57,849 nt of DNA from a virus (IMGVR_UViG_3300004776_000002:1-57849), one strand, 5' to 3'; counted from the stretch's first letter, positions 12,028 to 47,249 are shown. Numbers and translations are program-made. Notes: generated by a model from the letters alone, not told the origin.

Positions 12028-12036
12028 GAGAGGTGG

Positions 12037-13376: not shown

Positions 13377-14452
13377 ACATTCTAACTATTTTAGGTACGC
13401 GACCAGAAATTATACGTTTATCAAGAATTATTCCTAAACTGGATAAGTTGTGTACTCATACGTTAGTACATACTGGTCAGAATTATGATATTCGATTAAA
13501 TGACATCTTCTTCAAAGAGTTGCGTATTCGAAAACCAGATATTTTTCTTGGAATAATGACAAGTAATTTCGGAGAACAGGTTGGCTGTATGTTCCAGAGG
13601 TTAGAAAGAATATTAGTAGATAAGAAGCCGGATAAGGTTCTGATTTTGGGGGATACAAATAGTGGTTTGTGTGCGATTGTGTGTGAGCGCCTAGGAATAC
13701 CGGTATATCATATGGAAGCCGGAAACCGCTGTTTCGATAAACGCGTTCCTGAAGAAATAAACAGGAAATTAATAGATTCAATTTCATCCTACAATCTGCC
13801 TTATACTAATTTGAGCAAAGAGAATTTGTTGCATGATGGCGTGTCAAAGAACCGAACATTTGTTACAGGGAACCCGATCTATGAAGTGTTGAATTATTAT
13901 TTATCTGATATAAATAAAAGTCAGGTTTTGAAACGTCTGAAATTGAAGTCAGGTAAGTATTTTCTTTCTACTTTTCATCGTGCAGAGAATGTAGATGATC
14001 ACATGACTCTAAAGCAGATAGTTGAGGGTATTTCTCTGATTGCTAATTATTATAAGATGCCGGTTATTTGCAGTATTCATCCGCGTACTTTAGAGAAGTT
14101 ATTGGCAATTAATGCCGATAATCCTAATGTAATCTTTTGTAAACCGTTTGGTCTGTTTGACTTTGTAAAGTTAGAAAAAAATGCCAAATGTATTATTAGC
14201 GATAGTGGCACAATTGCTGAGGAAGCATGCATCTTAAAAACGCCCAATGTTATTATTCGATGCGCAACCGAGCGACCAGAAGTGATTGAATGTGGAAGCA
14301 ATGTCTTGGCGGGTACTAACTGCGATGATATTTTGAGATGCACACAGATAATGTGTTCTATGAATAAGAATTGGGAAATACCTGAAGGATATGATGTAAA
14401 GAATGTATCCAACTGCGTAGTAAAAATCTTGTTAGGAAAGGATGATTTATGA
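13373..14452 (+). CDS. wecB: UDP-HexNAc 2-epimerase (WecB/FnlC/QnlB family)
   Basis: GTRPEIIR, HTGQ, GDTNS, HMEAGNR, PEEINR, HRAEN, SDSG..EEA, TERPE motifs. Confidence 0.9.
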   Translation: MNILTILGTRPEIIRLSRIIPKLDKLCTHTLVHTGQNYDIRLNDIFFKELRIRKPDIFLGIMTSNFGEQVGCMFQRLERILVDKKPDKVLILGDTNSGLCAIVCERLGIPVYHMEAGNRCFDKRVPEEINRKLIDSISSYNLPYTNLSKENLLHDGVSKNRTFVTGNPIYEVLNYYLSDINKSQVLKRLKLKSGKYFLSTFHRAENVDDHMTLKQIVEGISLIANYYKMPVICSIHPRTLEKLLAINADNPNVIFCKPFGLFDFVKLEKNAKCIISDSGTIAEEACILKTPNVIIRCATERPEVIECGSNVLAGTNCDDILRCTQIMCSMNKNWEIPEGYDVKNVSNCVVKILLGKDDL

Positions 14453-15411
14453 AATTAGATATATCAGGGCCAGTTCTTTGTTTTGGGGGTTCAGGTAGTT
14501 GGGGTTGGCAATTAGCTAAAACTCTTTTAGATGATTCAAGTATACCTTCTGTTACTATATTTTCCAGGAATGAGTTTAACCAAGTAAAAATGCAGAGAGC
14601 CTTTAATAACGATAGGTTAAAGTTTATTATTGGTGATGTTAGAGATTATGAAGCAGTTCTTAGTGCATGCGCTAATAAGTGTACTGTGTATCTTTTAAGT
14701 GCGATTAAGCATGTTCCGATTTGTGAGGAACAACCCGATGAGGCAATTAAGACTAATATTATTGGAACACAAAACGTGATTCGAGCTAGTATTGTACAGA
14801 GAGTAGTTAAAGTGGTTGATGTTTCTTCTGATAAGGCTGCTGCCCCGAGTAATCTGTATGGAATGACTAAAGCAGTAGGAGAAAAACTTATTTTGGCTGC
14901 TAATAAACAATTAAATACTCGGTTCAAATGTATTCGGGCTGGAAATGTGTTAGGTAGTAATGGATCTGTGTGCCAGTTATTTATTGATCAGATTAAAAAA
15001 GATAATATTGTCAAAATTACCTCTAAGGGAATGAGTAGATACTTTCTTACACTTCCGCAGGCAATTCGTTTGTTGATAACTGCTTGTGAGTTTGACGCAG
15101 ATATGTTGGTTATGAAGATGCCCAGTTGTCGAATTTATGATTTGGCTAAGGTACTTATCAAGTATCATGGTAACAAAGACACAAGAATTATCGAAACTGG
15201 CATACGACCGGGCGAAAAATTACACGAGTTATTGATTACGGAATGGGAAGCATCAAAAACATATAAATTTGGTGACGACTTCTATGCTATCTCAGATACT
15301 CCCTTGAACCTTCCTAAAGTGGACTTTCCGTTTTATAGTTCAAACTCGCAATCATATATGACGATGAAACAAATTGAAACTATGTTAGGTAAAGGAGGGT
15401 TCTTGAAATGA
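14449..15411 (+). CDS. UDP-GlcNAc 4,6-dehydratase (FnlA/PseB/CapD family)
   Basis: GGSGSWG, GDVRD, KHVP, SSDKA, YGMTK, GNVLGSNGSV, IRPGEKLHE motifs. Confidence 0.9.
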   Translation: MKLDISGPVLCFGGSGSWGWQLAKTLLDDSSIPSVTIFSRNEFNQVKMQRAFNNDRLKFIIGDVRDYEAVLSACANKCTVYLLSAIKHVPICEEQPDEAIKTNIIGTQNVIRASIVQRVVKVVDVSSDKAAAPSNLYGMTKAVGEKLILAANKQLNTRFKCIRAGNVLGSNGSVCQLFIDQIKKDNIVKITSKGMSRYFLTLPQAIRLLITACEFDADMLVMKMPSCRIYDLAKVLIKYHGNKDTRIIETGIRPGEKLHELLITEWEASKTYKFGDDFYAISDTPLNLPKVDFPFYSSNSQSYMTMKQIETMLGKGGFLK

Positions 15412-16256
15412 AAAAAGTTGTTGTATTGGGTAGTAGTGGCATGGCAGGACATATGGTGTATAAATTTTTAGAGACAACTGGTAAGTATAATATTCTGGGC
15501 ATTTCTCGAACGCAAGAGTCAGGAATCACAAGTGAGTTATTTGACATAGAGAATGACTTAGTTGAATGTGTAAAATTTCTAAGTAAATACAAACCAGATG
15601 TAATTATTAATTGCATTGGCGTGTTGGTAAAGTCATCTCAGGATGATCCAACTCGAGCTATATTTACTAATAGTTTTTGGCCGCATGTTCTTGAAGATGT
15701 CAGTCGGGAACTGAACGCCAGACTTATTCATATCAGTACAGATTGTGTATTTGACGGAAAGAATGGTCCCTACAGTGAGACAGATTGGCCCACTGAGAAG
15801 AACTGGTATGGACGTAGCAAAGCCTTAGGTGAGATTGTAAATGATAGAGATTTAACTATTCGAACATCTATTATTGGGCCAGAGTTGAAGGATGACGGTA
15901 CAGGATTATTTGAATGGTTTATGCAACAGACTGGAGAAGTCTCTGGATTTACTAACGTGATGTGGAATGGTATTACAACTTTGGAACTGGCTAAGCAGAT
16001 TTACAGGATCTTGGACACTAACCTTACTGGTCTTTATCATTTGGTTACTGACGTTCCAATTTCCAAAGGTGATCTGTTAGTGGCAATGCAGAATATCTTT
16101 GGAAAGACTGACGTTAAGATAAATCTGACTGTTAATAATAATCAACGAAACAAAGTGTTAATCAATAATCGAATTGATGAGTACGATCCGAAAATACCTA
16201 CATACGAGATTCAACTCATCGAGTTGAAGAATATAAATGAACAACGAAATAATTAA
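15408..16256 (+). CDS. RmlD-like NDP-4-keto-6-deoxysugar reductase (QnlA/WbvR-like)
   Basis: GSSGMAG, ISTDCVFDG, YGRSK, RTSIIGPE motifs. Confidence 0.85.
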   Translation: MKKVVVLGSSGMAGHMVYKFLETTGKYNILGISRTQESGITSELFDIENDLVECVKFLSKYKPDVIINCIGVLVKSSQDDPTRAIFTNSFWPHVLEDVSRELNARLIHISTDCVFDGKNGPYSETDWPTEKNWYGRSKALGEIVNDRDLTIRTSIIGPELKDDGTGLFEWFMQQTGEVSGFTNVMWNGITTLELAKQIYRILDTNLTGLYHLVTDVPISKGDLLVAMQNIFGKTDVKINLTVNNNQRNKVLINNRIDEYDPKIPTYEIQLIELKNINEQRNN

Positions 16257-31190: not shown

Positions 31191-33248
31191 ATGAAACCAG
31201 AGTTGAAGGACTATCAAGTAAGAGCGATTAAGTTCGCGTTAGACGTCCCAAAGACGGCTCTATTTCTTCCGACGGGGTGCCTTAGTGGTAGCACTTTAAT
31301 ACCTATAAATCGTGGAAAGAGAGGCTTCAAGATTAGATTAGATAGATTGTATAATCAATACTATAAAAGAGATAAACTTGGGGATATAAGGTTTGATTTG
31401 TCTATTTCTACTTATGTTAGATCTTTTAGTAAAGATGTTATTAGATTAAATAAAATGATTGATGTGAAGTATAGTGGTAAAAAATTAATATATTTGCTTT
31501 CTTTAGAGAATGAATGTTGTATTAAAGCTACTGATAATCATAAAATTATGACGCAAAATGGTTACAAAGAATTAATTCAATTAAACAGTAACGATTTCGT
31601 TATGTGTGACAATGCTTGTTACCAAAAATCTAATGTTAAGGCTCAAAAGCTTTTCACTACCGATATAAAAGGAACTCGATTTCATCCACATAAAAGACGC
31701 GTAAAAACTGACAAAAGACACAGCATCGATAGTTATAATTATTTTAATTATAGAATAACATTGCCCAGAGCAGTTTACGAGGCGCATATTAACAACTTGA
31801 CGTTAGATGAGTACAAATATATAATTAGACATGATGAGAAAAAAGCGCGTAAATTGAAATATCTCGATTCTAATATGCATATTCATCATGAAGACGGCAA
31901 TCATTATAACAATGTTTTTGAAAATTTAGCTGTTACTGATTTATTTAATCATGGCAAATTACATGGTGATGATTATTATAAGAATTTTGGTATGGGCTTG
32001 CCGAATTTTAGTAGAGTAAAATCGATAACTAAACTTGATTATGAGGACACATATGATATTTGTTGTCTTTCGCCAAACAACAACTTTGTTGCTAATAATA
32101 TTGTAGTTCATAACTCTGGTAAAACGTTGGTATCTCTTCTCTATATCAAGGTTCTCGACAAGTCAACAATAATTATTACTCCTGCGTCAGTCAGACACGT
32201 ATGGCTGGACGAGAACAAAAAGTTCGACATTGGTCTGCACATATCAACCGACTATCGAGAAGGCGGAAAGATTACGATTATCTCGTACGATACTATCAAG
32301 AATTCTCCAGAGATTATGAAGGACTATGAGATAATTGTACTTGATGAAGCTCATTGTATATCAGACTCCGAAACTGTACGTTATAAACAGTTGTCACCAA
32401 TAATCAAGAGTAAAGAACGCGTGTTACTGTTGGCTGGATATCCCGTCGAGAACAAGTTGAATGAGATTTATATGTTATCTCTGATTACCGACGTCTTAGG
32501 CAAGAACTATTATCATTTTCTTGGTAAGTTCTTCCACGTGATTCGCCACAATGGGCGTATTATTAAGACTGTACCAAAGGCGGGATCGTTTGAGAAGATA
32601 GTCGAGTTAATTCGACCGTTCGTGTTTATTGTTGACAAGTCTGAGGCAGTACCAAAAGAAATAAAGAAAGAAACAGTAGTTGTGCGATACGCGTTGTCTG
32701 ACTACCAGAAAAATATTATCAATGCTCTTTCCGAATTTGGTGAATTTAGTGACAAGAATATTCACGTCACCTGCAAGAATGCATTAGTGGCCTTTGGGAA
32801 AGTGATGCAAGTAATATCTGGTTTCATATATCACACTAATGACATGAGCGAGTTGTATCCAGTATATTTTGATACTAATCCGAAACTTGAGGCATTGCGT
32901 AAGGTAGTTAAAGATAGAGACAACTATTTATTGTGGCACGTGTTCGATGCAGAGTTCGATATAATTAAAGAATTTGATAGTAGATGTCGATTGTCTAAGT
33001 TGCAGACTGATTCGCGTGGGTTGAATCTTCAAGAGTACGATTTCGCAGTTTATTACTCTGTGCCACTATCTGGGGGAATGTATTACCAGAGTCAGGACCG
33101 ACTATATAGGTTGGGTCGAACGAAGAATGTCTTGTCGATAGTCTTAATACCTGAGGGTGACTTCGGAGATAGACTTCTACAAATGTTGGACAGAAAGTTC
33201 AAGTTGACTAAGAGTTTCATTAACGAGTTGTTGAGGACTAAAGCATGA
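31191..33248 (+). CDS. SNF2-like SF2 helicase with intein
   Basis: YQ, spliced PTG|SGKT Walker A, DEAH, GLNLQ, QS.DR.YR.G motifs. Confidence 0.85.
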   Translation: MKPELKDYQVRAIKFALDVPKTALFLPTGCLSGSTLIPINRGKRGFKIRLDRLYNQYYKRDKLGDIRFDLSISTYVRSFSKDVIRLNKMIDVKYSGKKLIYLLSLENECCIKATDNHKIMTQNGYKELIQLNSNDFVMCDNACYQKSNVKAQKLFTTDIKGTRFHPHKRRVKTDKRHSIDSYNYFNYRITLPRAVYEAHINNLTLDEYKYIIRHDEKKARKLKYLDSNMHIHHEDGNHYNNVFENLAVTDLFNHGKLHGDDYYKNFGMGLPNFSRVKSITKLDYEDTYDICCLSPNNNFVANNIVVHNSGKTLVSLLYIKVLDKSTIIITPASVRHVWLDENKKFDIGLHISTDYREGGKITIISYDTIKNSPEIMKDYEIIVLDEAHCISDSETVRYKQLSPIIKSKERVLLLAGYPVENKLNEIYMLSLITDVLGKNYYHFLGKFFHVIRHNGRIIKTVPKAGSFEKIVELIRPFVFIVDKSEAVPKEIKKETVVVRYALSDYQKNIINALSEFGEFSDKNIHVTCKNALVAFGKVMQVISGFIYHTNDMSELYPVYFDTNPKLEALRKVVKDRDNYLLWHVFDAEFDIIKEFDSRCRLSKLQTDSRGLNLQEYDFAVYYSVPLSGGMYYQSQDRLYRLGRTKNVLSIVLIPEGDFGDRLLQMLDRKFKLTKSFINELLRTKA
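31278..32114 (+). mobile_element. Intein with HNH-type endonuclease (279 aa)
   Basis: G|CLSGST ... TDNH ... HIHHEDGNHYNN..ENL ... NNFVANNIVVHN|S. Confidence 0.9.
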
Positions 33249-35418: not shown

Positions 35419-38400
35419 ATGTCTGAATTAAAGTTAACTGACGGTGTCGGCTTAGCTGAATGTAATGAATGTCCGTTGAACAATTCATCGCAAGTCTTAT
35501 CTCATTTAGTCAATAAAGAAATAGTTGATATTTTGGTAATCGGTCAATGTTATTCGTCAGATACAGAAGTGTTGACTGATGTTGGATGGAAGTTGTTTAA
35601 AGATTTGAATAGAACAGAACGCATTGCTACTCTAAATCCACAAAATAATGTAATTTCATATCATCAACCAATTAAATATTTAGAGTTTAATTATGAAGGT
35701 AAGATGTACAACATTCGTAGTAATTACATCGATTTGTTAGTTACTCCTGATCATAATGTTCTTGTCAATAGACGCGCATTTCCGAGTCAAGAGATAAAAA
35801 GTAGAACTGAATTTGTGAAAGCAAGAGATTTTAACTTTCATACGCATCGAATATTGAGAAATGGTGTGTGGCTTGGTCAATCTGAATTGAAATTTACGTT
35901 GCCATCAATAGATATTGCTTATGCAGTATTTGGTAAAAATAAACGTATTGACGTTGTCAATGAAATCGATATCAATATTGATGATTGGTTAGCTTTTTTT
36001 GGGTTCTGGATTGCTGAGGGTTGGACATATAGGAGAAAACATAAAAATTATTCAAATTCATTTGCGTACTATGTTGGTGTAGGTCAGAATGACAATAAAA
36101 AATGCGATGAATTTGAAGTCTTACTTAAGCGACTTCCATTTAAATATAAGAAAAAAATTGACAGGGCTGGGTTTGTTAGATTTTTTATATATAATAAACA
36201 ATTGTATAGTTATCTTGAACAGTTTGGTAAATGTTATAACAAACATATACCAAATTGGATAAAGTTTCTGTCAACTGATAAATTAAAGATATTGTTTGAC
36301 TGGATGATGAAAGGCGACGGAAATGTTCATCGAGGATGTTTGTTTTACACAACCACAAGTAAACAGTTAGCTGATGATGTACAGGAAATTGCTTTAAAAT
36401 TAGGTTTATCTGCTATTGTGCGTTTACGTAAACGTGATTCTAAGTATATAAAAGATAATAAATGTTACGATTCGTCTAAATGGCGATCAGTTTATCAAAT
36501 ATCAATAATAAGAAAGGTTAGTCCGTCTTCATTTAAGAAAGCACCGGTGTTAATAGACTATTTTGATAAAGTTTATTGTGTTGAAGTTCCAAATCACGTA
36601 ATTTACGTTCGTAGAAATGGCAGAGCCTGTTGGTGTGGAAATTCACCTGGTTTAGACGAAGTGAAGCAGGGCAGACCGTTTATTGGGCGTTCTGGTAATC
36701 TAATCAATCCGGTGTTGAACAAGTATTCGTATGGCGTTGCTTACATCAATGTAATCAATTGTCGCCCGTTAGACGCAGACACGCAGAAAGACAGACAACC
36801 GCTTACAGCAGAAGTAAAGTGTTGCAGACCACGTTTCGATTCAGACTTCGATTACGTATTAGTCAATTATCATCCGAAGATAATTGTAGTACTTGGCGCC
36901 TTCGCGAAGAAAGAGATGCAACGATTGATGAAGACGAGAGAGTTCAAGATGCCGATTTACTTTACCGAACATCCTGCTTACATTCTCCGCAACGAACACC
37001 TGAAACCGCGATACATTACTGGATTGCATAATAATCTAAAATCTGTGTTTGGAAACGACGAATCAGAGATAGTTAATTCGTTTATATCATACACTGACGA
37101 CGTGCGTCTTCAATTCATGGAGGATGTTAACTCGTCAATACGCGTTGGTGTTGATATTGAAACTAACAGTCTTAATATGTTTGACCCGACGTTTGTTATT
37201 GGTACGGTAGCTGTCAGTTGCGATAAGTGTACATATTTCTTTGATGGTAGACAGAAAGATATTCGAGAGTATGACGCGTTGATAGACGTGTTGAAGAACG
37301 AGAGGGTGCAGAAAATATTTGCCGATATTATGTTCGACGTGGTGTCGTTTGAACAGTACGATATCAAGGTGAACAATTACACTGATTTGTTTCCGTTGGC
37401 GTACATTCACGACAACACGTTTCAGGAATATTCGTTGGCAGCAATAACTATGCGTTATCTACCTGAGTTGGCTGGCTATAAGGCGAAATTTCAGTCAACT
37501 GTATCTCCCGATAAATATCTCGAGGCTCCTACTTCAGAGTTGCGTATATATAATTCAATGGATGCATACGCCACCAAAACTCTATATAACTATATATACG
37601 AACGCATTGAGCCGAATTCCAAGAGGATATTCGAGAGAATAACGTTGAGAATGTTGCCAATGATTGTGATGATGAAAGTCGTTGGTATGAAGGTTGATAT
37701 AGACTTGTTGGAACAATACGAGAAATTGTTTCAAAATCGATTTGTAGAGTTGTCTAAGTTTTTCACTGATAAGTGGGGCATTACGAACATTAACTCTACT
37801 CTGCAGATTAAGAAATGGTTGTTTGAGACTCTTAAATTGAAACCAGTAAAGTTCAACGAGATTACAGCAACGCAGAGAGCTAAGGGAGCTACTAAGGGAA
37901 GTCCGTCTACTGATAAAGAGGTGCTTGAGATATATGCCGCAGAAGTACCTGAGACGAGAGCACTTTATGAGGCACGCAGAGTAGCTAACGTTCTTAACTA
38001 CTTTCTTGCGTCAATCAAAAATAACACTGATTTTAACGACATCATTCATCCGAATCTAAAACATTATGGCATCTCCAGTTATCGTCTGTCTTGTTCGTCT
38101 CCTAATCTTCAAGGCATACCGCGAGATGAGACTAAGATTGAGTTTCTCGATAAATATCCGTTGCGGCGTCTATTCAGAGCAAGATACTCTGATTCCAGTA
38201 TCTTAGAGTTTGACTTCTCTCAGCAGGAAGTTCGCATAGTTGCTGAGTTGGCTCGCGATGAGAAATTGTTGGATGCGTTTGCTAAGGGGAAAGACGTTCA
38301 CGCATTCGTTGGTTCTATTGTATTTGACAAACCGATTAATGAGATAACTAAACTCGAAAGGCAGATAGCTAAGGGTTGCGTGTTTGGTGCAATATTCGGC

Positions 38401-38901
38401 GCGTCTTATAAAGAAATGTCAATCAGACTGCATATACCAGAGAAACAGGCACGTGCTTATCTAACCAAATTCTTTGCGTTATTCAGTAGCATAGACAGTT
38501 TCATCAAGAGACAACATCGTATAGTTTTAGAGAGAGGAGTAATAACTACAATACTTGGTAGACCGCGCAGATTTATTATGAGTTCTGATAATATTGAGGA
38601 GGTGAAACGAGAAGCAGGAAATCACGTCATTCAAGCCGTTGCGGTTGATATCACTTTTCTTTCTCTGATTAGAATTTACGAGAAACTGCGAACTGATAAT
38701 ATGTTAGGAACATACGTGATTCCAATGAATACAGTACACGACTCGATATTGTTTGACGTGCGTCAGTCTGCAGTAGAATATGCAAATACAGAGATAACAG
38801 CTATTATGTCTGGTGTTCCGAAAGCGTTAGGTTTTAATGTAGTATATCCAGTAGAGGTCAAACAGGGCCGTCGCTGGGATGAAAAGATGAAAGGGGTGTA
38901 A
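35419..38901 (+). CDS. polA: Family A DNA polymerase fused to an N-terminal family-4 uracil-DNA glycosylase, with intein
   Basis: UDG: CxxC, GQ|SPG..E...G.PF.G.SG, N...CRP, HPAY. Exonuclease: DIET, FD, Y...D. Polymerase motifs DFSQQE, R..AK...FG, HDS. Confidence 0.9.
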   Translation: MSELKLTDGVGLAECNECPLNNSSQVLSHLVNKEIVDILVIGQCYSSDTEVLTDVGWKLFKDLNRTERIATLNPQNNVISYHQPIKYLEFNYEGKMYNIRSNYIDLLVTPDHNVLVNRRAFPSQEIKSRTEFVKARDFNFHTHRILRNGVWLGQSELKFTLPSIDIAYAVFGKNKRIDVVNEIDINIDDWLAFFGFWIAEGWTYRRKHKNYSNSFAYYVGVGQNDNKKCDEFEVLLKRLPFKYKKKIDRAGFVRFFIYNKQLYSYLEQFGKCYNKHIPNWIKFLSTDKLKILFDWMMKGDGNVHRGCLFYTTTSKQLADDVQEIALKLGLSAIVRLRKRDSKYIKDNKCYDSSKWRSVYQISIIRKVSPSSFKKAPVLIDYFDKVYCVEVPNHVIYVRRNGRACWCGNSPGLDEVKQGRPFIGRSGNLINPVLNKYSYGVAYINVINCRPLDADTQKDRQPLTAEVKCCRPRFDSDFDYVLVNYHPKIIVVLGAFAKKEMQRLMKTREFKMPIYFTEHPAYILRNEHLKPRYITGLHNNLKSVFGNDESEIVNSFISYTDDVRLQFMEDVNSSIRVGVDIETNSLNMFDPTFVIGTVAVSCDKCTYFFDGRQKDIREYDALIDVLKNERVQKIFADIMFDVVSFEQYDIKVNNYTDLFPLAYIHDNTFQEYSLAAITMRYLPELAGYKAKFQSTVSPDKYLEAPTSELRIYNSMDAYATKTLYNYIYERIEPNSKRIFERITLRMLPMIVMMKVVGMKVDIDLLEQYEKLFQNRFVELSKFFTDKWGITNINSTLQIKKWLFETLKLKPVKFNEITATQRAKGATKGSPSTDKEVLEIYAAEVPETRALYEARRVANVLNYFLASIKNNTDFNDIIHPNLKHYGISSYRLSCSSPNLQGIPRDETKIEFLDKYPLRRLFRARYSDSSILEFDFSQQEVRIVAELARDEKLLDAFAKGKDVHAFVGSIVFDKPINEITKLERQIAKGCVFGAIFGASYKEMSIRLHIPEKQARAYLTKFFALFSSIDSFIKRQHRIVLERGVITTILGRPRRFIMSSDNIEEVKREAGNHVIQAVAVDITFLSLIRIYEKLRTDNMLGTYVIPMNTVHDSILFDVRQSAVEYANTEITAIMSGVPKALGFNVVYPVEVKQGRRWDEKMKGV
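35548..36642 (+). mobile_element. Intein with LAGLIDADG endonuclease (365 aa)
   Basis: Q|CYSSDTEVLT..GW ... VTPDH ... FFGFWIAEG ... MMKGDG ... VYCVEVP ... WCGN|S. Confidence 0.9.
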
Positions 38902-38903
38902 TT

Positions 38904-39935
38904 ATGCAAGAAGGCAAGCTGAATTTTCTTATTGGTATTTCGTTTGGGAGTGAAGGTAAAGGGAACGTGGCTGCGTATTTGGGAGAGCGAAACAAACTTG
39001 ACTTGTGTATATCGAATAACAGTCCCAATGCGGGACACTGTTTCAAAGAGAATGGCGGTGTTGGAGAATCACATATAATTAAGATGTTGCCAGTTTCTGG
39101 AATCGTGAACAAAGAGTCAAACATACTCTTAGGTTCAGGTTCTGTGATTAATTTAGATAGATTGCTCGAGGAGATCAAGACGTACGACGTCGGTAATCGT
39201 CTACTTATCTCCGCTACTGCTCCAGTTGTCAACAAAGAGTGCATTGCATACGAAGAAGAACATCTGCGTTATATATCTTCCACGTTTCAGGGAACAGGCG
39301 CCGCGATAGGTTTCAAAGCAATGCGTTCACCCAAGATTAAATTGGTGAAGGATTATCCAGAATTAGATAAATACTGTCACAAGCATATAGCCGACATCAT
39401 ATTGAATAGAATTGATAAATGTGGCTATACAGGTCTGGTCGAGATTTGTCAGGGATACGGTTTATCAGTTGATAGCGAGATGTATCCGTTTACTACATCT
39501 CGTCCAGTGAACGTTGGGCAGGCTCTTGCATATCTGGATGTTCCTCCAAGCATTGTTGGCGATGTCATTGGCATTGCTAGGACATACATTATCAGAGTTG
39601 GTAATGTTCCCGATGGCTATTCTGGTGATACGTTCTTCGACTCAAAAGAATTGTCGTGGGATGAGATGTCTAAGAAGTTAGGTTACAATGTGTTGGAAAA
39701 AACTACCGTCACAAAAAGAGTACGGAGAGTATTCTCTTTCTCGAAATATTTATTTGAACAAGCAGTAAGACGAAATGGAGTAAACGTATTGTTTCTTACG
39801 TTTACTGACTACTTGATTGGCCGAGAACGTCAAGAGTTTATTGATTATCTGACGTCGTCGAAATTCTCATTCAAAGAGATTTATTTTGTGAATGGGTACG
39901 GAAACTACGATTCTATGATAGAGAAGATAAAATGA
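38904..39935 (+). CDS. purZ: PurZ/PurZ0-like adenylosuccinate synthetase homolog
   Basis: FGSEGKG (Ser at the PurA catalytic Asp), SPNAGH, QGYGLS, YPFTTSR, TYIIRVG, TTVTKR.RR, LTFTDY. Compact 343-aa length. Confidence 0.7.
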   Translation: MQEGKLNFLIGISFGSEGKGNVAAYLGERNKLDLCISNNSPNAGHCFKENGGVGESHIIKMLPVSGIVNKESNILLGSGSVINLDRLLEEIKTYDVGNRLLISATAPVVNKECIAYEEEHLRYISSTFQGTGAAIGFKAMRSPKIKLVKDYPELDKYCHKHIADIILNRIDKCGYTGLVEICQGYGLSVDSEMYPFTTSRPVNVGQALAYLDVPPSIVGDVIGIARTYIIRVGNVPDGYSGDTFFDSKELSWDEMSKKLGYNVLEKTTVTKRVRRVFSFSKYLFEQAVRRNGVNVLFLTFTDYLIGRERQEFIDYLTSSKFSFKEIYFVNGYGNYDSMIEKIK

Positions 39936-40345
39936 GTAACTATCTGTATCACAAGGAATACCGTCGAAGAAATGCGTCAAACATAGCGAAAATGAAACAC
40001 CAGTGGTATTTAAGAAACAAGAAACACGTCAGAGAGTACCAAGATTCTTATAAAGAAGAACATCCTGAGAAGGTGCGTAACTACAAATTAGATTGGAACA
40101 GAAAGAACAAAGATAAGAAAAGAGCGAGTGCTAGAAAATATTATGAGAATAACACAGAAAAGATGAGACATTTTCATCCTGTAAGTCGAAGTAGTGAATA
40201 TGAAGGTAAAGATATCAATGAACGTACTAATCTTGGTGTTGCTCATGGTGATAGAAGCAAAGAGAAATGCAATAACATAAAGAAAAATAAGACTTTAGAT
40301 GAGTGGTTTAAATTTGTTGAGAAGGAGATTAAACATGAATCTTAG
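39932..40345 (+). CDS. Degenerate HNH endonuclease
   Basis: Basic helical repeats, then HFHPVSR...N...NL...CN..K.NK. The first CxxC pair is missing. Confidence 0.55.
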   Translation: MSNYLYHKEYRRRNASNIAKMKHQWYLRNKKHVREYQDSYKEEHPEKVRNYKLDWNRKNKDKKRASARKYYENNTEKMRHFHPVSRSSEYEGKDINERTNLGVAHGDRSKEKCNNIKKNKTLDEWFKFVEKEIKHES

Positions 40346-42038
40346 TGATAATGCAATTAAGGTTCTCCAGAAACGATATTTGACTCGTGATCAGAAGGGT
40401 AACATTATAGAGAGTCCAGAACAAATGTTTACTCGAGTTGCCCGTACCATTGCTGGTGCAGAACGTGATGAGTCCGCTATCGAGTATGAGGAGAAGTTCT
40501 ACAAAATAATGACGAATCTGGAATTTCTGCCAAATACTCCAACATTAATCAACGCAGGAAAAGATTTGGGACAACTATCGGCATGTTTTGTTCTTCCTAT
40601 CGATGATAGTATGGATAGTATATTTACCACACTTCGAGATGCCGCTCTCGTTCAGAAGTCTGGTGGCGGGTGCGGGTTTAATTTCTCGAATATACGACCT
40701 ATCAATGATACAGTGAAGTCTACGAATAAATGTGCAGGTGGACCCATTCAGTTTATTTACATATTTGATAGAGCTTTGGAAGTAATTAGTCAGGGCGGAG
40801 TGCGTCATGGTGCAAACATGGGTTGTCTAAGAGTTGATCATCCGGATATACTGGAGTTTATCAAATTGAAAGAGAAAGAGGGAACGATACCTAATTTCAA
40901 TATATCGGTTGGCATTACAGATGAGTTTATGTCAGCTGTCAGAGGGTGCCGTAAACATCAATTAATAAATCCGCGTACTGGCGCAGTGACGAAGGAAGTT
41001 AGCGCTGTCGAATTGTTCAACTCGATAGTAGAGCATGCGTGGAATAATGGCGAGCCTGGAGTGTTGTTTCTCGATGAGATTAACAGGTGCAACGTTGTTC
41101 CTCATGTTGGATCTATTGAGGCTACTAACCCCTGTGGAGAACAACCCCTTTTAGGATATGAGTCTTGCAATCTCGGATCTATCAATCTTGGTAGGCTCAT
41201 TAAAGCTAAGACAATTGATTTTGAGAGATTAGCGTATTTAGTAAAGTTGGCTGTTAGATTTCTCGACAACGTAATTGATATGAATAGATATCCAATATCA
41301 CAGATTGAAACGAAAACCAAACAGACGCGCAAGATAGGTCTTGGTGTGATGGGATTCGCAGACTTGTTGATTAAGTTGGATATCAAATACGATACCGATG
41401 AGGCAGTGCAGATGGCTCACAAGGTGATGGGTTTTATTCAGAAACACGCAACCGAGGCATCCACAGAGTTAGCTGAAACCCGTGGGGTGTTTCCCGCGTA
41501 TCGCGGTAGCGTGTGGCACATGGAACGCGGTGTTCGTATGCGTAATGCTGCTGTCACTACGGTGGCTCCCACAGGAACGTTGTCTATTATAGCTAATTGT
41601 TCCTCAGGTATTGAACCATATTACTCAAAGACTATAAAGAAACATATACTAAGTACTATTCTTGAGGAAGAAGTAGAGTTTGCGAAGGAAGAGAGTTTCA
41701 TCACTGCTCAGGATATCACTCCTGACTGGCATATCAAAATTCAGGCTGCGTTTCAGACGCACGTTGATTCTGCAGTGTCTAAGACGATAAACTTTTCTAA
41801 TTCTGCGACGAAAGAGGACGTGAAGAGAGCGTACATGACTGCGTATAAGATGAAATGCAAAGGTCTGACTATCTATCGCGATAATTCACGCGAGTCGCAG
41901 GTTCTATATGCAGGAAAGACAGAATCGCCTAAGATGGAACTGCAGAAATGTCCGTCATGTGGTGCAGAGTTAGTCAACGAATCTGGATGTCAGTCGTGTG
42001 CAGCAAAATGCGGATGGTCAGCTTGTCGTATCTCTTGA
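40335..42038 (+). CDS. nrdJ: Class II (B12-dependent) ribonucleotide reductase
   Basis: PNTPT, LSACFV, TNPCGE, CNLGS, APTGT, YRD.SR and C-terminal Cys cluster. No beta-subunit gene nearby. Confidence 0.9.
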   Translation: MNLSDNAIKVLQKRYLTRDQKGNIIESPEQMFTRVARTIAGAERDESAIEYEEKFYKIMTNLEFLPNTPTLINAGKDLGQLSACFVLPIDDSMDSIFTTLRDAALVQKSGGGCGFNFSNIRPINDTVKSTNKCAGGPIQFIYIFDRALEVISQGGVRHGANMGCLRVDHPDILEFIKLKEKEGTIPNFNISVGITDEFMSAVRGCRKHQLINPRTGAVTKEVSAVELFNSIVEHAWNNGEPGVLFLDEINRCNVVPHVGSIEATNPCGEQPLLGYESCNLGSINLGRLIKAKTIDFERLAYLVKLAVRFLDNVIDMNRYPISQIETKTKQTRKIGLGVMGFADLLIKLDIKYDTDEAVQMAHKVMGFIQKHATEASTELAETRGVFPAYRGSVWHMERGVRMRNAAVTTVAPTGTLSIIANCSSGIEPYYSKTIKKHILSTILEEEVEFAKEESFITAQDITPDWHIKIQAAFQTHVDSAVSKTINFSNSATKEDVKRAYMTAYKMKCKGLTIYRDNSRESQVLYAGKTESPKMELQKCPSCGAELVNESGCQSCAAKCGWSACRIS

Positions 42039-42085
42039 AATTATGATTAGTAATGAGCAAAAGAAAAATCTTAGTAAAGAGTAGA

Positions 42086-42132
42086 TATAATCTATGAGAT
42101 ATATTGACGGAGTGAATGGAGCATGATATAAT
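42086..42132 (+). promoter_or_regulatory. Sigma70-type promoter with upstream TATAATCTAT box
   Basis: TTGACG 42104, 17-nt spacer, TATAAT 42127. Confidence 0.8.
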
Positions 42133-42290
42133 GAAATATAAACGAGATGTCGTGAAACGAGTAGTTCGTCATTACCGAGGTGTCTGTCCTGAATGTCAAA
42201 TGTTAATCAACTTAATAAAAATAGATAAAAATAGTTGGTCAAGCTGTCACTGCGGTTACGTATTTACTATAACAAAAAAGGAGATGTCGA

Positions 42291-42776
42291 ATGAATCAAA
42301 TTGACGAAATTCTAAACAAAATATCGTTGGCATTTGGGGTCGAGAATCTAGAAATTGTCTTTCCAGAGGACTTGATGGTTGATTTGACGTTGTTTAAGAT
42401 TGCGAATATCGATGCTTCGCGTCTGGACGATGAATTGATTTCGTCTGGAAAACTGTATATTCTTTTTGAGACTATTCTGGCTCACGTGTCCGACAAATAT
42501 AGCAAACAGGACGCCAAGGTCAAACAACTCGAGGCAGAGTTAGCTCTCAAGTATGAGAAGAGTTTGAGTGCATCTGGAGACAGAGTTTCTGACAAGAAGA
42601 TTGAGAAACTCGTTGACGCCGACAAAGATTTCATTGACGCTATTGACAAGAAGTTAGAGTATAAGAATCTTGTCATTACGTTTACTAACATATTGACTTC
42701 GTTAGATAAACGACACGATATGTTGATACAGTTGTCTGCGAAACGAAACAAAGAGATTGGCGGTAACTTAGGATAA
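42291..42776 (+). CDS. UvsY-like recombination mediator
   Basis: Helical 161-aa protein ending L.KR..ML.QL...R, located near the recombinase gene. Confidence 0.55.
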   Translation: MNQIDEILNKISLAFGVENLEIVFPEDLMVDLTLFKIANIDASRLDDELISSGKLYILFETILAHVSDKYSKQDAKVKQLEAELALKYEKSLSASGDRVSDKKIEKLVDADKDFIDAIDKKLEYKNLVITFTNILTSLDKRHDMLIQLSAKRNKEIGGNLG

Positions 42777-42949
42777 GGAGATAGAATGAAGAAAGTAGAC
42801 CCATTAATTGCGATTACCGTTATTTCAGTTGTAGTTACTATACTTCTATCTATGTATATTCTTTACTCGATAAATACGGCAGCTGAGACGGTGAAAAGAA
42901 ATGGCGGTCTTAAGAAGATTCTGACACCTTATTGGGAAGGAGAAAAGAA

Positions 42950-44080
42950 GTGAACAAGAATAAACAAATAGTGAAGAAGGAAGAAAAGACTGATATATCG
43001 AAGTTTGTTAGCAATCTCGTTGGAGAGTACCGAAAGAAGAATATGATGGTTGAGACTGGTCATATTGACTGCGAGTTCTTCGATTCTGGTAACTATGCAC
43101 TTAACTATATTCTCTCTGGTAACTTCGAGGCAGGCATGCCTGAGAATCAGGTTATCAACGTGCATGGCGACTCCATGACCGGCAAGTCTTTAATGATTTA
43201 CAACTGCATAGCAAATTTCTTAAAGAAATATTCTGATGGCGTAGTTATTCTCGACGATACAGAGTATTCGTATGTTAATTATCTTGGGAGTACTCTGCAG
43301 ATAGACGAATCGCGTTTTATTCGTATATCTACGTCTACCGTAGAGGAACACTCCAAGGTGGTATTCTTTGGTGGCACTATTAAGTCTATCGATGAATTAG
43401 GAGATCCGGTTGATATCAAGATAGATGAGCCGTTGGTTCCTAAACTGTACAAACAAGGAATCAAACATATATTGATTGCTGTAGATAGCATTGCTGCCTG
43501 GTCTACTGAACATGAGATTGATATTAAACTTGAGAAACCAGATATGTCGAAGGCTAAGATTCTACGAGCATTGTTGCGTACTATTATGCCTGAGATAAAA
43601 AAATATGGGTTGACCTATATGATTAGCAATCATATGATATTCAACATTGGCGATATGTGGGGTCCAAAGAAGATTGAAGGCGGCGGCACCAGTCCCGCAT
43701 ATTGGTCTGCAGTGAGATTGTGTCTATCGCTAGCTGGTAAGATTAAGATTGGCGAGAAGAAAGAAGAACGCATAGTCGGAGTAGTGTCCAGAGCGACGAC
43801 AGTAAAGAACAGATTCGCGCCTCCGTATCGCAACTGCGAGATTGAAATTAGAAACGACAGTGGCATGTCTCGATTCTCTGGATTGCTGAAACTTTTGATT
43901 GACTTAGGCATCGTGGAACTTAAACCCGGCGGCTGGTATACGACCTACGACGGTGCTATCAGATTTCAGTCGAAAGATTTCGAGAGCAAATGGTTAGAAA
44001 TAAAAGAGAAAATAACACCAGATAGAATAAAGATGAGAGAGTCCGCACCAACTACGGTGGAAGAATTAAAGGAAGACTAA
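42950..44080 (+). CDS. uvsX: RecA/UvsX-like recombinase
   Basis: SG..ALN.ILSG, GDSMTGKS, DTE, VDSIA, GG, KNRF.PP motifs. GTG 42950 follows GAAGGAG. Confidence 0.9.
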   Translation: MNKNKQIVKKEEKTDISKFVSNLVGEYRKKNMMVETGHIDCEFFDSGNYALNYILSGNFEAGMPENQVINVHGDSMTGKSLMIYNCIANFLKKYSDGVVILDDTEYSYVNYLGSTLQIDESRFIRISTSTVEEHSKVVFFGGTIKSIDELGDPVDIKIDEPLVPKLYKQGIKHILIAVDSIAAWSTEHEIDIKLEKPDMSKAKILRALLRTIMPEIKKYGLTYMISNHMIFNIGDMWGPKKIEGGGTSPAYWSAVRLCLSLAGKIKIGEKKEERIVGVVSRATTVKNRFAPPYRNCEIEIRNDSGMSRFSGLLKLLIDLGIVELKPGGWYTTYDGAIRFQSKDFESKWLEIKEKITPDRIKMRESAPTTVEELKED

Positions 44081-44545
44081 ATGCAAGAAAATGTTAGAGC
44101 GTTGAGAGATATTGTAACGTGGATAAAAATCGTTCCGAATAATCAACTTGGTTGGCATATGGAACGTTTGGAGTATTTCACCAACGAGTTGTTCAAATAT
44201 GCCAAATTTAAAGTTGGTCAGAAAGTCAAGTTAATCAAAGTTCCTCAAATTGACGAGAAAACTAATCACGGTTGGATTAGTTACAAACATATTCTCACAC
44301 AAGGCGCGGTGGCTACTGTAATTGAAGTAGATCACTACAACGGGCGATTTCGATACGCGTTGGTGTTTACAGCGATGAATAAAATAAAGGTGACTAATTT
44401 AGACGACGTCTTAATTAATACTTACGGCGGGTCATTTGCGTTCTATGAAGAGTATTTAGCTTCATACAGGAGGAACAATGGTAGAAAAAAATTCAATATC
44501 AAATTTGAAAATCGATATAGCCGTTTACGAGAAGAAACAAAATAG
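44081..44545 (+). CDS. Hypothetical protein
   Basis: 154-aa ORF containing FKVGQKV (SH3-like). Confidence 0.45.
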   Translation: MQENVRALRDIVTWIKIVPNNQLGWHMERLEYFTNELFKYAKFKVGQKVKLIKVPQIDEKTNHGWISYKHILTQGAVATVIEVDHYNGRFRYALVFTAMNKIKVTNLDDVLINTYGGSFAFYEEYLASYRRNNGRKKFNIKFENRYSRLREETK

Positions 44546-44560
44546 GAGAGGAGGTGTACC

Positions 44561-45694
44561 ATTTTTAAATTTCATCACCAATCAATCTCTTTAGACGAGA
44601 TTGCAGTAATTCCGGAGTCAGTGACTACGTATTCTGATAGCGATGTTGATGTAAGTGTGCAGATTGGTAATCTCAAATTAAGTATACCTATTATAGGCGC
44701 TGCCATGGACAGTGTCACTAGCTCCGAAACCGTACTTAGAGAGTTGCATAGATTCGGTGGAATCGGTATCGTTAATCTGTGCGGATTGATATCTCGATAT
44801 AGTTTCTCTGCTTATCATGCAATATTGCCGAAATTAGTAGAGAACCCAACGATAAAGACGTTGCAGGATATCTACAACTCTGCGCCTGTTGATATTGGCA
44901 TATTGGGAAAGAATCTTAAGACGTTGCAGGAGTTGTTAGGTGACGTTCAGTTTGTCGTATCTGCTACTCCACAACAGGCAGAGAGGTTGTTTGATGTTGC
45001 GTTGCAATTGAATATAAAGACGTTTGCTATACAATCGTCATTTATATCGCCGTACTGGACATCTCCTAATGCTACTGGGCTTAATGTGGGCAAATACATT
45101 CAATATTTGCATCAACACGATAACACAGTCATGGTTGGGAATATTGCATCACTCAACGCTGCTGTTCCTTTCATTGAAGCTGGGGTTGACGCAATCATAG
45201 AGGGTGTGGGTTCGGGAGTTCAATGCACAACCCGTTTTGTTCTGGGAATTGGTGCAGGTCACGTGGCTACGATAGACGCGTTGCGTGACTACATAGAGAA
45301 ACAGAAGTCTAAGACGAAGATTATTGCAGATGGCGGAATCAGTAACTCTGGAGATATCGTCAAGTTGTTATGTATAGGTGCACATGCAGTAATTATCGGT
45401 GGAATGATTGCAAAGACGAATGCAGGACCGTTTAATGGATTTCACTACGGTATGTCTGCCTATCATAGTATACTTCCTCGTGGAGATTTGTTGAAGTTTG
45501 AGATTGAAGACAATGTTACTATTGAAAGACTGTTGATGGGACCTTCTGACAGAGCAGACGGCACTCTTGCATTGATTCCTGCGTTGACTAATGCATTGTC
45601 TAACTTAGGTTGCAAAGATATCAATAGTGCATATCGAGACACTCTTGTGACGCGGTTTCCGGGAATTAAGTCGGAAGGCAAATTAAAGAAATGA
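44561..45694 (+). CDS. guaB: IMP dehydrogenase / GMP reductase family (GuaB3-like), probable ATT start
   Basis: LDEIAVIP, AAMDSV, GVGSG..CTTR catalytic loop, IIADGG, YGM, GPS..DGT motifs. Confidence 0.85.
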   Translation: MFKFHHQSISLDEIAVIPESVTTYSDSDVDVSVQIGNLKLSIPIIGAAMDSVTSSETVLRELHRFGGIGIVNLCGLISRYSFSAYHAILPKLVENPTIKTLQDIYNSAPVDIGILGKNLKTLQELLGDVQFVVSATPQQAERLFDVALQLNIKTFAIQSSFISPYWTSPNATGLNVGKYIQYLHQHDNTVMVGNIASLNAAVPFIEAGVDAIIEGVGSGVQCTTRFVLGIGAGHVATIDALRDYIEKQKSKTKIIADGGISNSGDIVKLLCIGAHAVIIGGMIAKTNAGPFNGFHYGMSAYHSILPRGDLLKFEIEDNVTIERLLMGPSDRADGTLALIPALTNALSNLGCKDINSAYRDTLVTRFPGIKSEGKLKK

Positions 45695-45701
45695 GGAACA
45701 T

Positions 45702-46055
45702 ATGAATGGAAATGCTCAAATACAAAGTACAATGTTTGGGTATGAGGATGGGATTATGACCTGTCTTCTTTATCTTAGACAGGGAGCTCTTGGTCAGAGG
45801 TTTGGTGATTTTTGTTTGGACAATGTTCCAAAGAAAGATGAATTTGATAGGCAGCCAAGTAAACTTTGTGGATTCTGCATTAAACGTATTCTTGAGACAG
45901 TAGGAGTTGGGAAATGGGAAGATTTGTCTGGGAAATTTATTAGAGTAGAAGGGGATAATGTCAGAATTATCAAGATTGGTCATGTTATTGAAGACAAGTG
46001 GTTCGAACCTAAGAAAGAGATTCAAATGTTGCTTGAATCAATAAAAAATGAGTAA
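45702..46055 (+). CDS. Conserved phage hypothetical protein
   Basis: NA.I.ST.FG.EDGI...VGV.KWEDL.GK..R...IGH...DKWF. Confidence 0.55.
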   Translation: MNGNAQIQSTMFGYEDGIMTCLLYLRQGALGQRFGDFCLDNVPKKDEFDRQPSKLCGFCIKRILETVGVGKWEDLSGKFIRVEGDNVRIIKIGHVIEDKWFEPKKEIQMLLESIKNE

Positions 46056-46659
46056 ATTATTGTTTATAGACGTTGAGACTACTGGTGTAAATCCAAACAA
46101 GAATGGCATAATTCAACTTGCTTGTCTGATTGAGATTGACGGAAAAGTTGTTGATAAGTGTCATCTCAAAATTAAGCCGTTTGAGAAAGACGTTATCGAA
46201 CAGTCTGCGTTAGATACCGTTGGTGTTACTTTAGAGGAAATTATGCAGTATGAGGACCCGACCAATGCGTATTGGCAGTTTCGCAAGATGCTTGAGAAGT
46301 ACATCAATGTATATGACAAGAACAAGGCGAATAAGTTTATTCCTGTTGGTTATAACGTGCAGTTTGATTTAGACTTTCTGGATGCGTTTTTCAGAAAGAA
46401 TCAGGATAAATACATAGGTTCGTTCTTCAACTGGCGCAAACTTGACGTTCTGCAGATGTTTTATTGGAGACACTATCTTGGAATTGATAGTCTCGAGAGT
46501 TATAAATTAGAAAAAGTCTGCGAAAAATATAAAGTTCCGTTAGAGGCTCACGACGCATTCAACGACATAGTGGCTACTCGTACTTTGTTCAAGATGTTAG
46601 AGAAACAGATATTATTCACCACAGAACAGGAGGGTACAAATGGAGAGACAAGCAGTTAA
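46048..46659 (+). CDS. DEDDh 3'-5' exonuclease
   Basis: DVETTG, YNV.FD, H.A..D motifs. Confidence 0.9.
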   Translation: MSKLLFIDVETTGVNPNKNGIIQLACLIEIDGKVVDKCHLKIKPFEKDVIEQSALDTVGVTLEEIMQYEDPTNAYWQFRKMLEKYINVYDKNKANKFIPVGYNVQFDLDFLDAFFRKNQDKYIGSFFNWRKLDVLQMFYWRHYLGIDSLESYKLEKVCEKYKVPLEAHDAFNDIVATRTLFKMLEKQILFTTEQEGTNGETSS

Positions 46660-46927
46660 GAGTTCGAATATCGCGTCAATCGGGTATGATGAGGCAAATA
46701 GCATTTTGGAAGTGCAGTTTCTCAATGGTAAAGTGTTTCAGTACGCAGGCGTTCCCAAGGAGTTGCACGAGAATTTTATGAAGTCGGAGTCTAAGGGTAA
46801 GTTCTTCTATGCTAACATTCGCAAGGCTGATTTCGTGTGCAAACCAATCGTAGAGGTAAAAGATGAAAAGAAAGAAAGAGATTTGGCCGTTGGAACAGAG
46901 GAAACGGGAGCCAGCGAACAAGTTTGA
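46640..46927 (+). CDS. KTSC domain protein
   Basis: V.SSNI.SIGYD....LEV.F..G..FQY.GVP...S.G.FF...IR. Confidence 0.85.
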   Translation: MERQAVKSSNIASIGYDEANSILEVQFLNGKVFQYAGVPKELHENFMKSESKGKFFYANIRKADFVCKPIVEVKDEKKERDLAVGTEETGASEQV

Positions 46928-47249
46928 CGGTGGAAGTAAGAACAGATACGACTTAGTTCCTCCTCGCGCATTTGATGAAGTAGTCGAAATCTACACTTAC
47001 GGCTCCAAGAAGTATACCGATCACAACTGGCTCAAAGGTATGTCGTGGTCGAGAATATTCGGTGCTTTGATGAGGCATTGTTGGGCATTCTGGAGGGGAG
47101 AAGACGTTGATCCAGAGTCAGGTAAGCCGCACATGGCTCACGCGGCTTGGTGCTGTCTTGCTCTTCTTGAGTTCTCCAGAGTGCATCGCAAGTTTGATGA
47201 TAGAATATCAACTACAGGGCTGCCGAATGTTGAAAAAGTTAAGTCATGA
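46863..47249 (+). CDS. DUF5664 / dATP-dGTP diphosphohydrolase N-terminal-like protein
   Basis: KFDG.K.RYDLVP, YG..KY..HNW..G, A.MRH, GED.DPESG..H.AH motifs. Confidence 0.8.
   Translation: MKRKKEIWPLEQRKREPANKFDGGSKNRYDLVPPRAFDEVVEIYTYGSKKYTDHNWLKGMSWSRIFGALMRHCWAFWRGEDVDPESGKPHMAHAAWCCLALLEFSRVHRKFDDRISTTGLPNVEKVKS

Follow-up and report, generated by a model that had tools for sequence, protein, structure and literature searches.

Genes of the locus

The window analysed here is the whole IMG/VR virus record IMGVR_UViG_3300004776_000002 (57,849 bp), with genes all on the + strand. A replication and recombination module spans 28.4-54.4 kb and encodes a gp32-like single-stranded DNA-binding protein, a primase, an SNF2 helicase, a DnaB-like helicase, a family-A DNA polymerase (PolA) fused to a uracil-DNA glycosylase (UDG)-like domain, a PurA-like enzyme, the ribonucleotide reductase NrdJ, UvsY- and UvsX-like proteins, an IMP dehydrogenase (IMPDH), an RNase T-type exonuclease, a KTSC protein, a PF18909/DUF5664 protein and, later, an SbcCD-like fusion. 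The region in question, a candidate pathway to 2-aminoadenine (Z), runs exactly from the start of the PurA-like gene to the stop of the DUF5664 gene (38904..47249). A first-pass annotation had named NrdJ, a GuaB3-like IMPDH and a DUF5664 protein near the PurA homolog, and all three are found there, on the same strand (Table 1). The Pfam search covered 63 of the 93 called open reading frames (ORFs) of the window, and six-frame searches covered its whole length.

Table 1. Polymerase and nucleotide-supply genes of the window, with their family matches
Feature	Coordinates	Strand	Matches
Family-A DNA polymerase (PolA) with 3'-5' exonuclease and N-terminal family-4 UDG-like domain, the latter split by a LAGLIDADG intein	35419..38901	+	PF00476 (1.9e-73), PF01612, PF03167, PF14528
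PurZ-family (succino-amino-deoxyadenylate synthase-like) enzyme, 343 aa	38904..39935	+	PF00709 (E 1.8e-31)
NrdJ, class II (B12-dependent) ribonucleotide reductase	40299..42038	+	PF02867 (8e-125); TIGR02504 (662 bits, cut-off 400)
GuaB3-type IMPDH without CBS/Bateman domain	44561..45694 (mechanical ORF 44621..45694)	+	PF00478; TIGR01304 (8.7e-60)
Stand-alone DUF5664 protein, 128 aa, predicted dATP/dGTP pyrophosphohydrolase	46863..47249	+	PF18909 (E 7.2e-35, 119.4 bits, cut-off 27); phrog_801

The PurZ-family synthetase

Among solved structures the PurA-like enzyme matches best the PurZ of phage phiVC8 (6fko, E 8.9e-40) and that of S-2L (7odx, 3.3e-35), followed by Pyrococcus horikoshii PurA (5k7x, 2.4e-21), the PurZ0 of Archimedes (7vf6, 2.3e-15) and E. 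coli PurA (1ade, 1.9e-11). Its AlphaFold model, with a predicted local distance difference test (pLDDT) value of 89.5, gives template-modelling (TM) scores of 0.85 (6fko), 0.84 (7odx), 0.82 (5k7x) and 0.78 (7vf6). The top NCBIfam model is PurZ NF038379, with 201.4 bits under a cut-off of 300, and PHROGs groups the enzyme with PurZ.

Motifs were compared in a reference alignment of 14 rows. The Ser that the first-pass annotation had seen in place of the catalytic Asp (GSEGKG) is confirmed as Ser16, which aligns with Ser14 of phiVC8 PurZ and with the catalytic Asp of E. coli PurA; 13 rows possess Ser and E. coli PurA alone Asp. Over a larger set, Ser occupies this position in 255 of 257 aligned PurZ-like proteins, and the published frequencies are 99% for Asp13 within the PurA group and 100% for Ser among 147 phage PurZ (PMC12884076). 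The Ile of TYIIRVG, likewise held to be PurZ-like, is Ile230; it is common to every PurZ and PurZ0 row, and the two PurA references, E. coli and P. horikoshii, have Thr. The Asp of TFTD, read as PurA/PurZ0-like, is Asp302 and aligns as expected with Asp333 of E. coli PurA (Asp334 counting Met) and with the Asp of both PurZ0 rows; five phage PurZ, those of phiVC8 and S-2L among them, carry Asn or Gln at this position. The Arg of TTVTKR, taken as a further sign of a PurA/PurZ0-like donor, is present as Arg272, but PurZ of Bm1 and BUCT555 also have Arg, and the residue is uninformative on the donor.

Records of isolated phages contain 213 matches to the enzyme, all less than 60% identical and none above 38%. 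A collection of 5.8 billion proteins holds 48 proteins that are 51-93% identical to the window enzyme, with the next drop to 42%, and in a 50%-identity library the family consists of one full-length representative and fragments. Relatives in IMG/VR surfaced with the family alignment; a single-protein query had matched none. Ser16, Phe300, Asp302 and Tyr303 are invariant in a 29-row alignment of the family. The enzyme is thus supported as a member of the PurZ family and belongs to a tight uncultured family.

The donor-base pocket

The pocket for the base of the phosphate donor is a hybrid, with Thr299 and Asp302 as in PurA/PurZ0 and Phe300 and Tyr303 as in PurZ. The corresponding motif reads LTKLDVL in E. 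coli PurA, VTMLDKY in Pyrococcus PurA, LSMADQL or LTMLDQV in PurZ0, LNF-x-(N/Q)-Y in five phage PurZ and LTFTDYL in the window enzyme. In PurZ the 6-amino group of adenine is read by Asn294/Asn297 (phiVC8) or Asn305/Gln308 (S-2L), positions held by Thr299/Asp302 in the window enzyme. Compared with the guanine pocket of archaeal-PurA type (T/S-M-x-D-Q/K), the Thr and the Asp are shared, but Phe stands for Met and Tyr for Gln/Lys.

Exchange of Asp333 for Asn in E. coli PurA reportedly moves the donor from GTP to XTP (Kang et al. 1994), and PurZ0 is reported to use GTP (Tong et al. 2023, Nat Microbiol). The Yang preprint agrees in substance with the use of GTP by PurZ0. One sentence of section 24 of PMC12884076 gives the donors of PurZ0 and PurZ as 'ATP and GTP, respectively', in reverse order, which is probably a slip. 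For the window PurZ the residues lean towards GTP rather than ATP, a call held at even confidence, because the base-reading positions are Thr and Asp (PurA/PurZ0) and not the Asn and Asn/Gln of ATP-using PurZ. Against a guanine pocket stand the retained Phe300 and Tyr303, whose counterparts stabilise adenine in PurZ, and the stacking Pro of GFGP, which is missing from all 44 family rows; the pocket therefore permits no confident reading.

Over 256 proteins the two pocket positions co-vary, with T/S accompanied by D in 80 proteins and N by N/Q in 145, besides 19 mixed and 12 other cases. The Asp state is dispersed across the tree, and the starred branches require at least 6 to 10 changes. Asp-type pockets thus have a much wider distribution than the PurZ0 clade of actinophages. 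A link between Asp-type pockets and loss of DatZ was considered and rejected, DatZ being present in 21 of 26 non-family D loci versus 23 of 46 N-type loci.

Phylogenetic position

Trees were calculated with FastTree from 257 PurZ-like proteins and with IQ-TREE (LG+C20 PMSF, quick search) from 97, with E. coli as the sole PurA outgroup. The window family forms a clade with 100% support in both and has the Asn-type protein P0121 as its sister. The comparison with PurA, PurZ and PurZ0 that the first-pass annotation had proposed gives a divided answer. Both trees place the family together with phiVC8 and S-2L PurZ in a group of 99% support in the Shimodaira-Hasegawa-like approximate likelihood-ratio test (SH-aLRT), and the two PurZ0 references outside this group near the E. 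coli root; the approximately unbiased (AU) test does not reject a joint clade of the family with PurZ0 (delta lnL 1.59, p 0.488).

The IMP dehydrogenase

The IMPDH matches the catalytic barrel PF00478 only and possesses no CBS domain (PF00571). Its best model is TIGR01304 GuaB3, at 202.9 bits versus a cut-off of 342.1 and 88 bits ahead of the next model. The top structures are 8p4q, which we take to be GuaB3 of Synechocystis, and its Cys-to-Ser form 8p37 (E 2.7e-43, residues 9-355); IMPDH activity of the Synechocystis enzyme is said to have been found by Hernandez-Gomez et al. in 2023. The catalytic Cys loop GSGVQCTTR aligns to GPGAACTSR of 8p4q, while the structure 2qr6 is without Cys there. 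Cys202, Arg205 and the IMP-binding DGG motif are invariant, besides other positions, in an alignment of 15 IMPDH rows. Cyanobacterial GuaB3 is described as the essential IMPDH and as being without a CBS pair (PMC13273366), and mycobacterial GuaB3 as a protein without the catalytic loop and with no known activity (PMC9790621). The phage IMPDH is predicted to be a GuaB3 of the active type, because it keeps the catalytic Cys loop, unlike mycobacterial GuaB3.

Homologous IMPDHs begin about 20 residues before the listed GTG start at 44621. The frame is open upstream of this GTG (region 44545-44621), and the 20 codons upstream of the GTG encode an N-terminal peptide conserved in all homologues. A strong Shine-Dalgarno sequence, GGAGAGGAGG, ends six bases before an ATT at 44561, where homologues have ATG, and this ATT is probably the start of the gene.

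The IMPDH subfamily occurs in phages only, its members being 49-100% identical before identity drops to 31%. The gene is syntenic in four of five related records and is found at six of eight family loci; one of the misses is a locus cut after NrdJ, with the gene at the other end of the contig. All six IMG/VR homologues of at least 53% identity sit on contigs with this PurZ family, and the gene was found within 10 kb of PurZ at none of the 72 other PurZ loci. Among 74 more distant viral IMPDH-like loci a PurA-like neighbour is seen in one only, the IMG/VR locus L191 of another uncultured phage, whose PurA-like ORF (~9281-10313) is a true Asp-type PurA (GDCGKG, NKMD) with the IMPDH-like gene within 10 kb.

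The first-pass annotation knew of no described Z phage that combines PurZ with an IMPDH, and this agrees with what we find: the conserved pairing of IMPDH with PurZ is a trait of this clade alone, and the link is absent from the main texts of PMC12884076 and the Yang preprint and from the literature searched on 2-aminoadenine/diaminopurine. What the window contributes as new is the link of IMPDH with PurZ, together with the analysis of the donor pocket.

The DUF5664 protein

The DUF5664 protein of the window is 41% identical over 92 residues to gp51 of Arthrobacter phage Wayne, with aligned core motifs, and the gp51 gene adjoins the PurZ0 gene of Wayne. A stand-alone DUF5664 enzyme has been assayed as a dATP/dGTP/dUTP diphosphatase (PMC12884076). 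We take Wayne gp51 to be that enzyme, on the match to the window protein and the position beside PurZ0 and not on a gene number in PMC12884076. By analogy the window protein could fill both the role of dATP removal and that of dGMP supply. PF18909, HD_3 and PolA/exonuclease domains are reported within 3 kb of purZ on contigs enriched for dZ by experiment (bioRxiv 10.1101/2025.10.22.683976, section 9).

Relatives and genomic context

Seven family loci with 58-73% identity are present in IMG/VR; they include two near-duplicate pairs and come from five records that can be told apart. The gene order gp32 - primase - SNF2 - DnaB - PolA - PurZ - NrdJ - UvsY - UvsX - IMPDH is kept among relatives at 42-84% protein identity. 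Two of the relatives are G001 (97.9 kb) and G003 (102.8 kb, with terminal repeats). CheckV rates completeness inconsistently: the window is put at 34%, G001 at 100% and G003 at 66%, although G003 has terminal repeats.

PF18909 is present in all five related records. In G003 a distance of about 200 bases, with one small ORF, separates it from PurZ upstream; its place in G001 and G004 is directly after the IMPDH gene. The UDG-PolA fusion is conserved with this PurZ family; the versions of G001 (804 aa) and G003 (855 aa) are without the LAGLIDADG intein, which in the UDG-like domain of the window is about 360 aa long. G001 carries an NT5C-type deoxynucleotidase; neither thymidylate synthase nor dCMP deaminase was seen in G001, and neither the window nor G001 showed a deaminase that could produce dIMP.

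NrdJ comes after PurZ at L011-L015, with a spacing of about 30 bases at L011 and L012 and a gap of about 780 bases at L013-L015. In the window a very basic ORF of 137 aa without family match (39932-40345) separates PurZ from NrdJ, whose start it overlaps; it may be an insertion. G003 encodes two N6/N4 DNA methylases and a Dam-like D12 N6-adenine methyltransferase (L111:6633-7502, L115:3641-4426, L115:5576-6418), which pose the question of their target if A is replaced by Z.

The G+C content of the window, described beforehand as AT-rich, measures 38.4%. Its description as a T4-like replicon is rejected, since the polymerase belongs to family A and the capsid of the relative G001 matches the SU10 major capsid protein family. 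The SNF2-type helicase (31191-33248) has an intein splicing domain at residues 75-308 (PF14890), which relatives lack, since they match only the parts on either side of it. Elsewhere the window encodes a 1106-aa collagen-repeat protein (314-3634) and a sugar-modification cluster (8413-16256) with a GT2 glycosyltransferase, methyltransferases, a UDP-GlcNAc 2-epimerase, a PseB-like dehydratase and an RmlD-like reductase; a comparable set occurs in G001.

A candidate guanine-to-Z pathway

We read the region as the nucleotide-supply part of the replication module in an uncultured, PolA-using phage lineage of about 100 kb that most likely puts Z into its DNA, and give this reading slightly better than even odds (roughly 55%). 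IMPDH is the committed, rate-limiting step of the guanine branch, and the Bateman domain is the site at which adenine and guanine nucleotides regulate bacterial IMPDH. The GuaB3-type IMPDH of the phage would convert IMP to XMP, which commits the purine branch point to guanine, and, without a Bateman domain, would escape nucleotide feedback. Host GuaA and Gmk would carry the product on to GDP, which the phage NrdJ would reduce. The DUF5664 protein, by homology to the assayed Wayne enzyme, would turn dGTP into dGMP and destroy dATP. From dGMP and aspartate the PurZ-family enzyme would form the succino-amino-deoxyadenylate dSMP, a role suggested by its Ser16 and by the neighbouring genes. Completion of dZTP would fall to PurB and kinases of the host, as reported for phiVC8, and the adjacent UDG-PolA would incorporate it.

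An IMPDH makes sense in such a pathway because all purines of a Z genome must pass through the guanine branch. At the G+C content of the window this branch would, in a Z genome, supply 50% of the bases versus 19.2% for G alone, a 2.6-fold demand. The idea that the IMPDH feeds a 'G-hungry PurZ0' thus holds for the extra demand, every Z taking one dGMP as substrate, and fails for the cost of the donor: GTP used as donor is recycled as GDP, so the donor alone is no explanation of the IMPDH. The 'own guanine-nucleotide supply' proposed by the first-pass annotation is borne out for IMPDH and NrdJ and not beyond: guaA, gmk and purB were seen neither in the window nor in G001, a complete relative. 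Its wider claim of a Z-pathway setting is backed by the PurZ-family gene beside PolA and by the link to PF18909 in five of five records, with the qualification 'PurZ0 type' being supported in part only.

A number of results weigh against Z in the DNA of these phages. The assignments to PurZ and to GuaB3 both lie under curated NCBIfam cut-offs (201 vs 300 and 203 vs 342 bits). No HD-domain DatZ is found in the window by Pfam (63 of 93 ORFs) or by six-frame searches of its full length, as the first-pass annotation had already remarked, and its suggestion to look for datZ and mazZ further afield, followed up in the relatives, returned none. DatZ/HD (phiVC8 DatZ query and PF01966) is present in none of the window record G000, G001 and G003, with the S-2L and Bm1 controls detected, and S-2L-type MazZ in none of the five related records at E < 0.01, with the Bm1 and BUCT555 controls detected. 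The same five records lack dUTPase/DutZ (PF00692; Wayne and Archimedes controls detected) and DUF550 (PF04447; one Acinetobacter phage control detected). The PolA scores far under DpoZ_1 (98.7 bits, cut-off 500) and DpoZ_2 (48.6, cut-off 350), and has 291 bits with generic PolI. With DatZ, DutZ, DUF550 and a DpoZ-class polymerase all missing, adenine exclusion would rest on one small enzyme, so that substitution may be partial or absent. PF18909 is no marker of Z by itself: tblastn matches it in 1253 records of phages, among them many that infect Mycobacterium or Propionibacterium, and since many of the phages are not known to contain Z, it proves nothing alone. G003 is truly without IMPDH, which hence is not essential to the pathway and would be an enhancer, not a core part. 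The counts of D- and N-type loci with DatZ, given above, lend no independent support to a functional split.

Near PurZ, DatZ occurs at none of the eight family loci versus 44 of the 72 other PurZ loci. A phiVC8 MazZ-2 query found nothing near the window PurZ, its sole control being the self-hit. A PF03819 (MazG) search missed the S-2L MazZ control and was discarded as a test. The phmmer/HMM screen of 80 loci detected a single locus with MazZ, a single one with DUF550 and none with DmtZ, and is too insensitive for these families.

Alternative readings

The missing DatZ, DutZ, DUF550 and DpoZ-class polymerase, and the frequency of PF18909 in phages not known to hold Z, would also suit an ordinary auxiliary pair of purine enzymes, in which the PurA-like protein makes adenylosuccinate from IMP, the IMPDH makes XMP and both, with NrdJ, raise the two purine pools of an A-containing genome. 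Such a pair exists in nature at L191, but the PurA of that locus keeps the catalytic Asp (GDCGKG) and the NKMD guanine motif, whereas the window family has Ser in 29 of 29 rows. The published division between Asp13 of PurA (99%) and Ser of phage PurZ (100% of 147; PMC12884076) speaks against the pair as well, and so do Ile230 and the short form of the enzyme, which match PurZ/PurZ0 and not PurA, and the place of the gene between replicative polymerase and ribonucleotide reductase, always linked to a homologue of a dATP/dGTP pyrophosphohydrolase. We regard the auxiliary pair as unlikely. A different activity of the IMPDH-family enzyme itself, as GMP reductase or in a step from dIMP to dXMP that would recycle adenine deoxynucleotides toward dGMP and Z, is suggested by its score below the GuaB3 cut-off, by only 30-36% identity to the nearest other sequences of the alignment, and by a Cys loop common to IMPDH and GMP reductase. 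Actinobacterial GuaB3 is moreover without known function (PMC9790621), and the IMPDH genes of G001 and G004 directly adjoin that of DUF5664, an enzyme that would yield dAMP and dGMP. Cyanobacterial GuaB3, the nearest relative with a characterised function, is nevertheless an IMPDH; no variation is seen in the catalytic Cys or in the DGG motif that binds IMP, a dIMP-making deaminase is lacking from the window and G001, and a GMP reductase would oppose a pathway in need of guanine nucleotides. Such an activity is therefore held to be improbable.

Whether the synthetase is a true PurZ0, as the first-pass annotation had it, concerns the type of Z pathway. The family would in that case branch deep in the PurZ0 lineage, which uses GTP, as an intermediate of archaeal PurA and PurZ, instead of being a PurZ with the Asp retained or regained. 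This part of the earlier claim stands as far as Thr299 and Asp302 go, which match PurZ0 (LSMAD, LTMLD) and also archaeal and E. coli PurA (VTMLD, LTKLD), and the joint clade admitted by the AU test is compatible with it; the lack of DatZ and the stand-alone DUF5664 protein recall Wayne. Against it are the stacking and flanking residues, which are Phe and Tyr as in PurZ and not Met and Gln, and the trees, both of which put PurZ0 outside the well-supported clade of the family with phiVC8 and S-2L PurZ. Similarity scores likewise favour PurZ (E 9e-40 vs 2e-15; TM 0.85 vs 0.78), and DutZ, present in 98 of 98 PurZ0 genomes (PMC12884076), is missing from five of five records; one DmtZ query (phmmer) was without match in the 80 loci, a weak test. 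A true PurZ0 seems quite unlikely on this balance, and a PurZ-family enzyme in a probable Z pathway remains our preferred reading.

More speculatively, the dimorphism of Thr/Ser...Asp versus Asn...Asn/Gln could reflect repeated switches between GTP and (d)ATP as donor across the PurZ superfamily. PurZ0-like GTP chemistry would then be widespread beyond actinophages, and the window clade would represent a GTP-driven, DatZ-less Z pathway with its own feedback-free, CBS-less IMPDH and a flux from IMP through G to Z. We offer this as a tentative proposal that is rather doubtful as a whole. In a bolder variant the IMPDH might also accept dIMP, and a loop recycling A to Z would be closed at the deoxynucleotide level.

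Comparison with known systems

Described Z phages manage their pools by destruction of dATP and conversion of dGTP to dGMP, and none is reported to raise guanine synthesis itself. If the preferred reading is true, the pairing of a Bateman-less phage IMPDH with PurZ would give the Z pathway its first gene for upstream supply, and would offer a candidate part for the production of Z-DNA in bacteria, for which published systems reach partial substitution only. The hybrid pocket and the co-variation in 256 proteins bear on what sets the use of ATP versus GTP in the PurZ family. With DatZ, DutZ and a DpoZ-class polymerase missing, either DUF5664 alone would exclude adenine or substitution by Z would be partial.

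With PurZ of phiVC8 and S-2L the window enzyme shares the short PurA fold, Ser for the catalytic Asp, Ile before RVG and the pocket Phe and Tyr, and in phiVC8, too, the PurZ gene lies near a PolA. It differs from them in being 33% identical, in Thr299/Asp302 replacing Asn/Asn-Gln and in the lack of the stacking Pro of GFGP; the cluster has no adjacent DatZ or MazZ, and the genome measures about 100 kb or more versus about 40 kb. The actinophage PurZ0 systems (Gordonia phage Archimedes, 7VF6; Wayne; with DutZ, DmtZ and DUF5664) have in common with the window the pocket Thr/Ser and Asp, the lack of DatZ and a stand-alone DUF5664 near the synthetase. They differ in that the window enzyme is 28-29% identical to theirs, has Phe and Tyr for Met and Gln, occurs without DutZ and takes another position in the tree, though not decisively. 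GuaB3 8P4Q, finally, resembles the window IMPDH in the full-length match (residues 9-355), the lack of a CBS pair and the aligned Cys loop and DGG motif, whereas the window IMPDH belongs to a phage-only subfamily, scores under the TIGR01304 cut-off and is encoded beside a PurZ gene.

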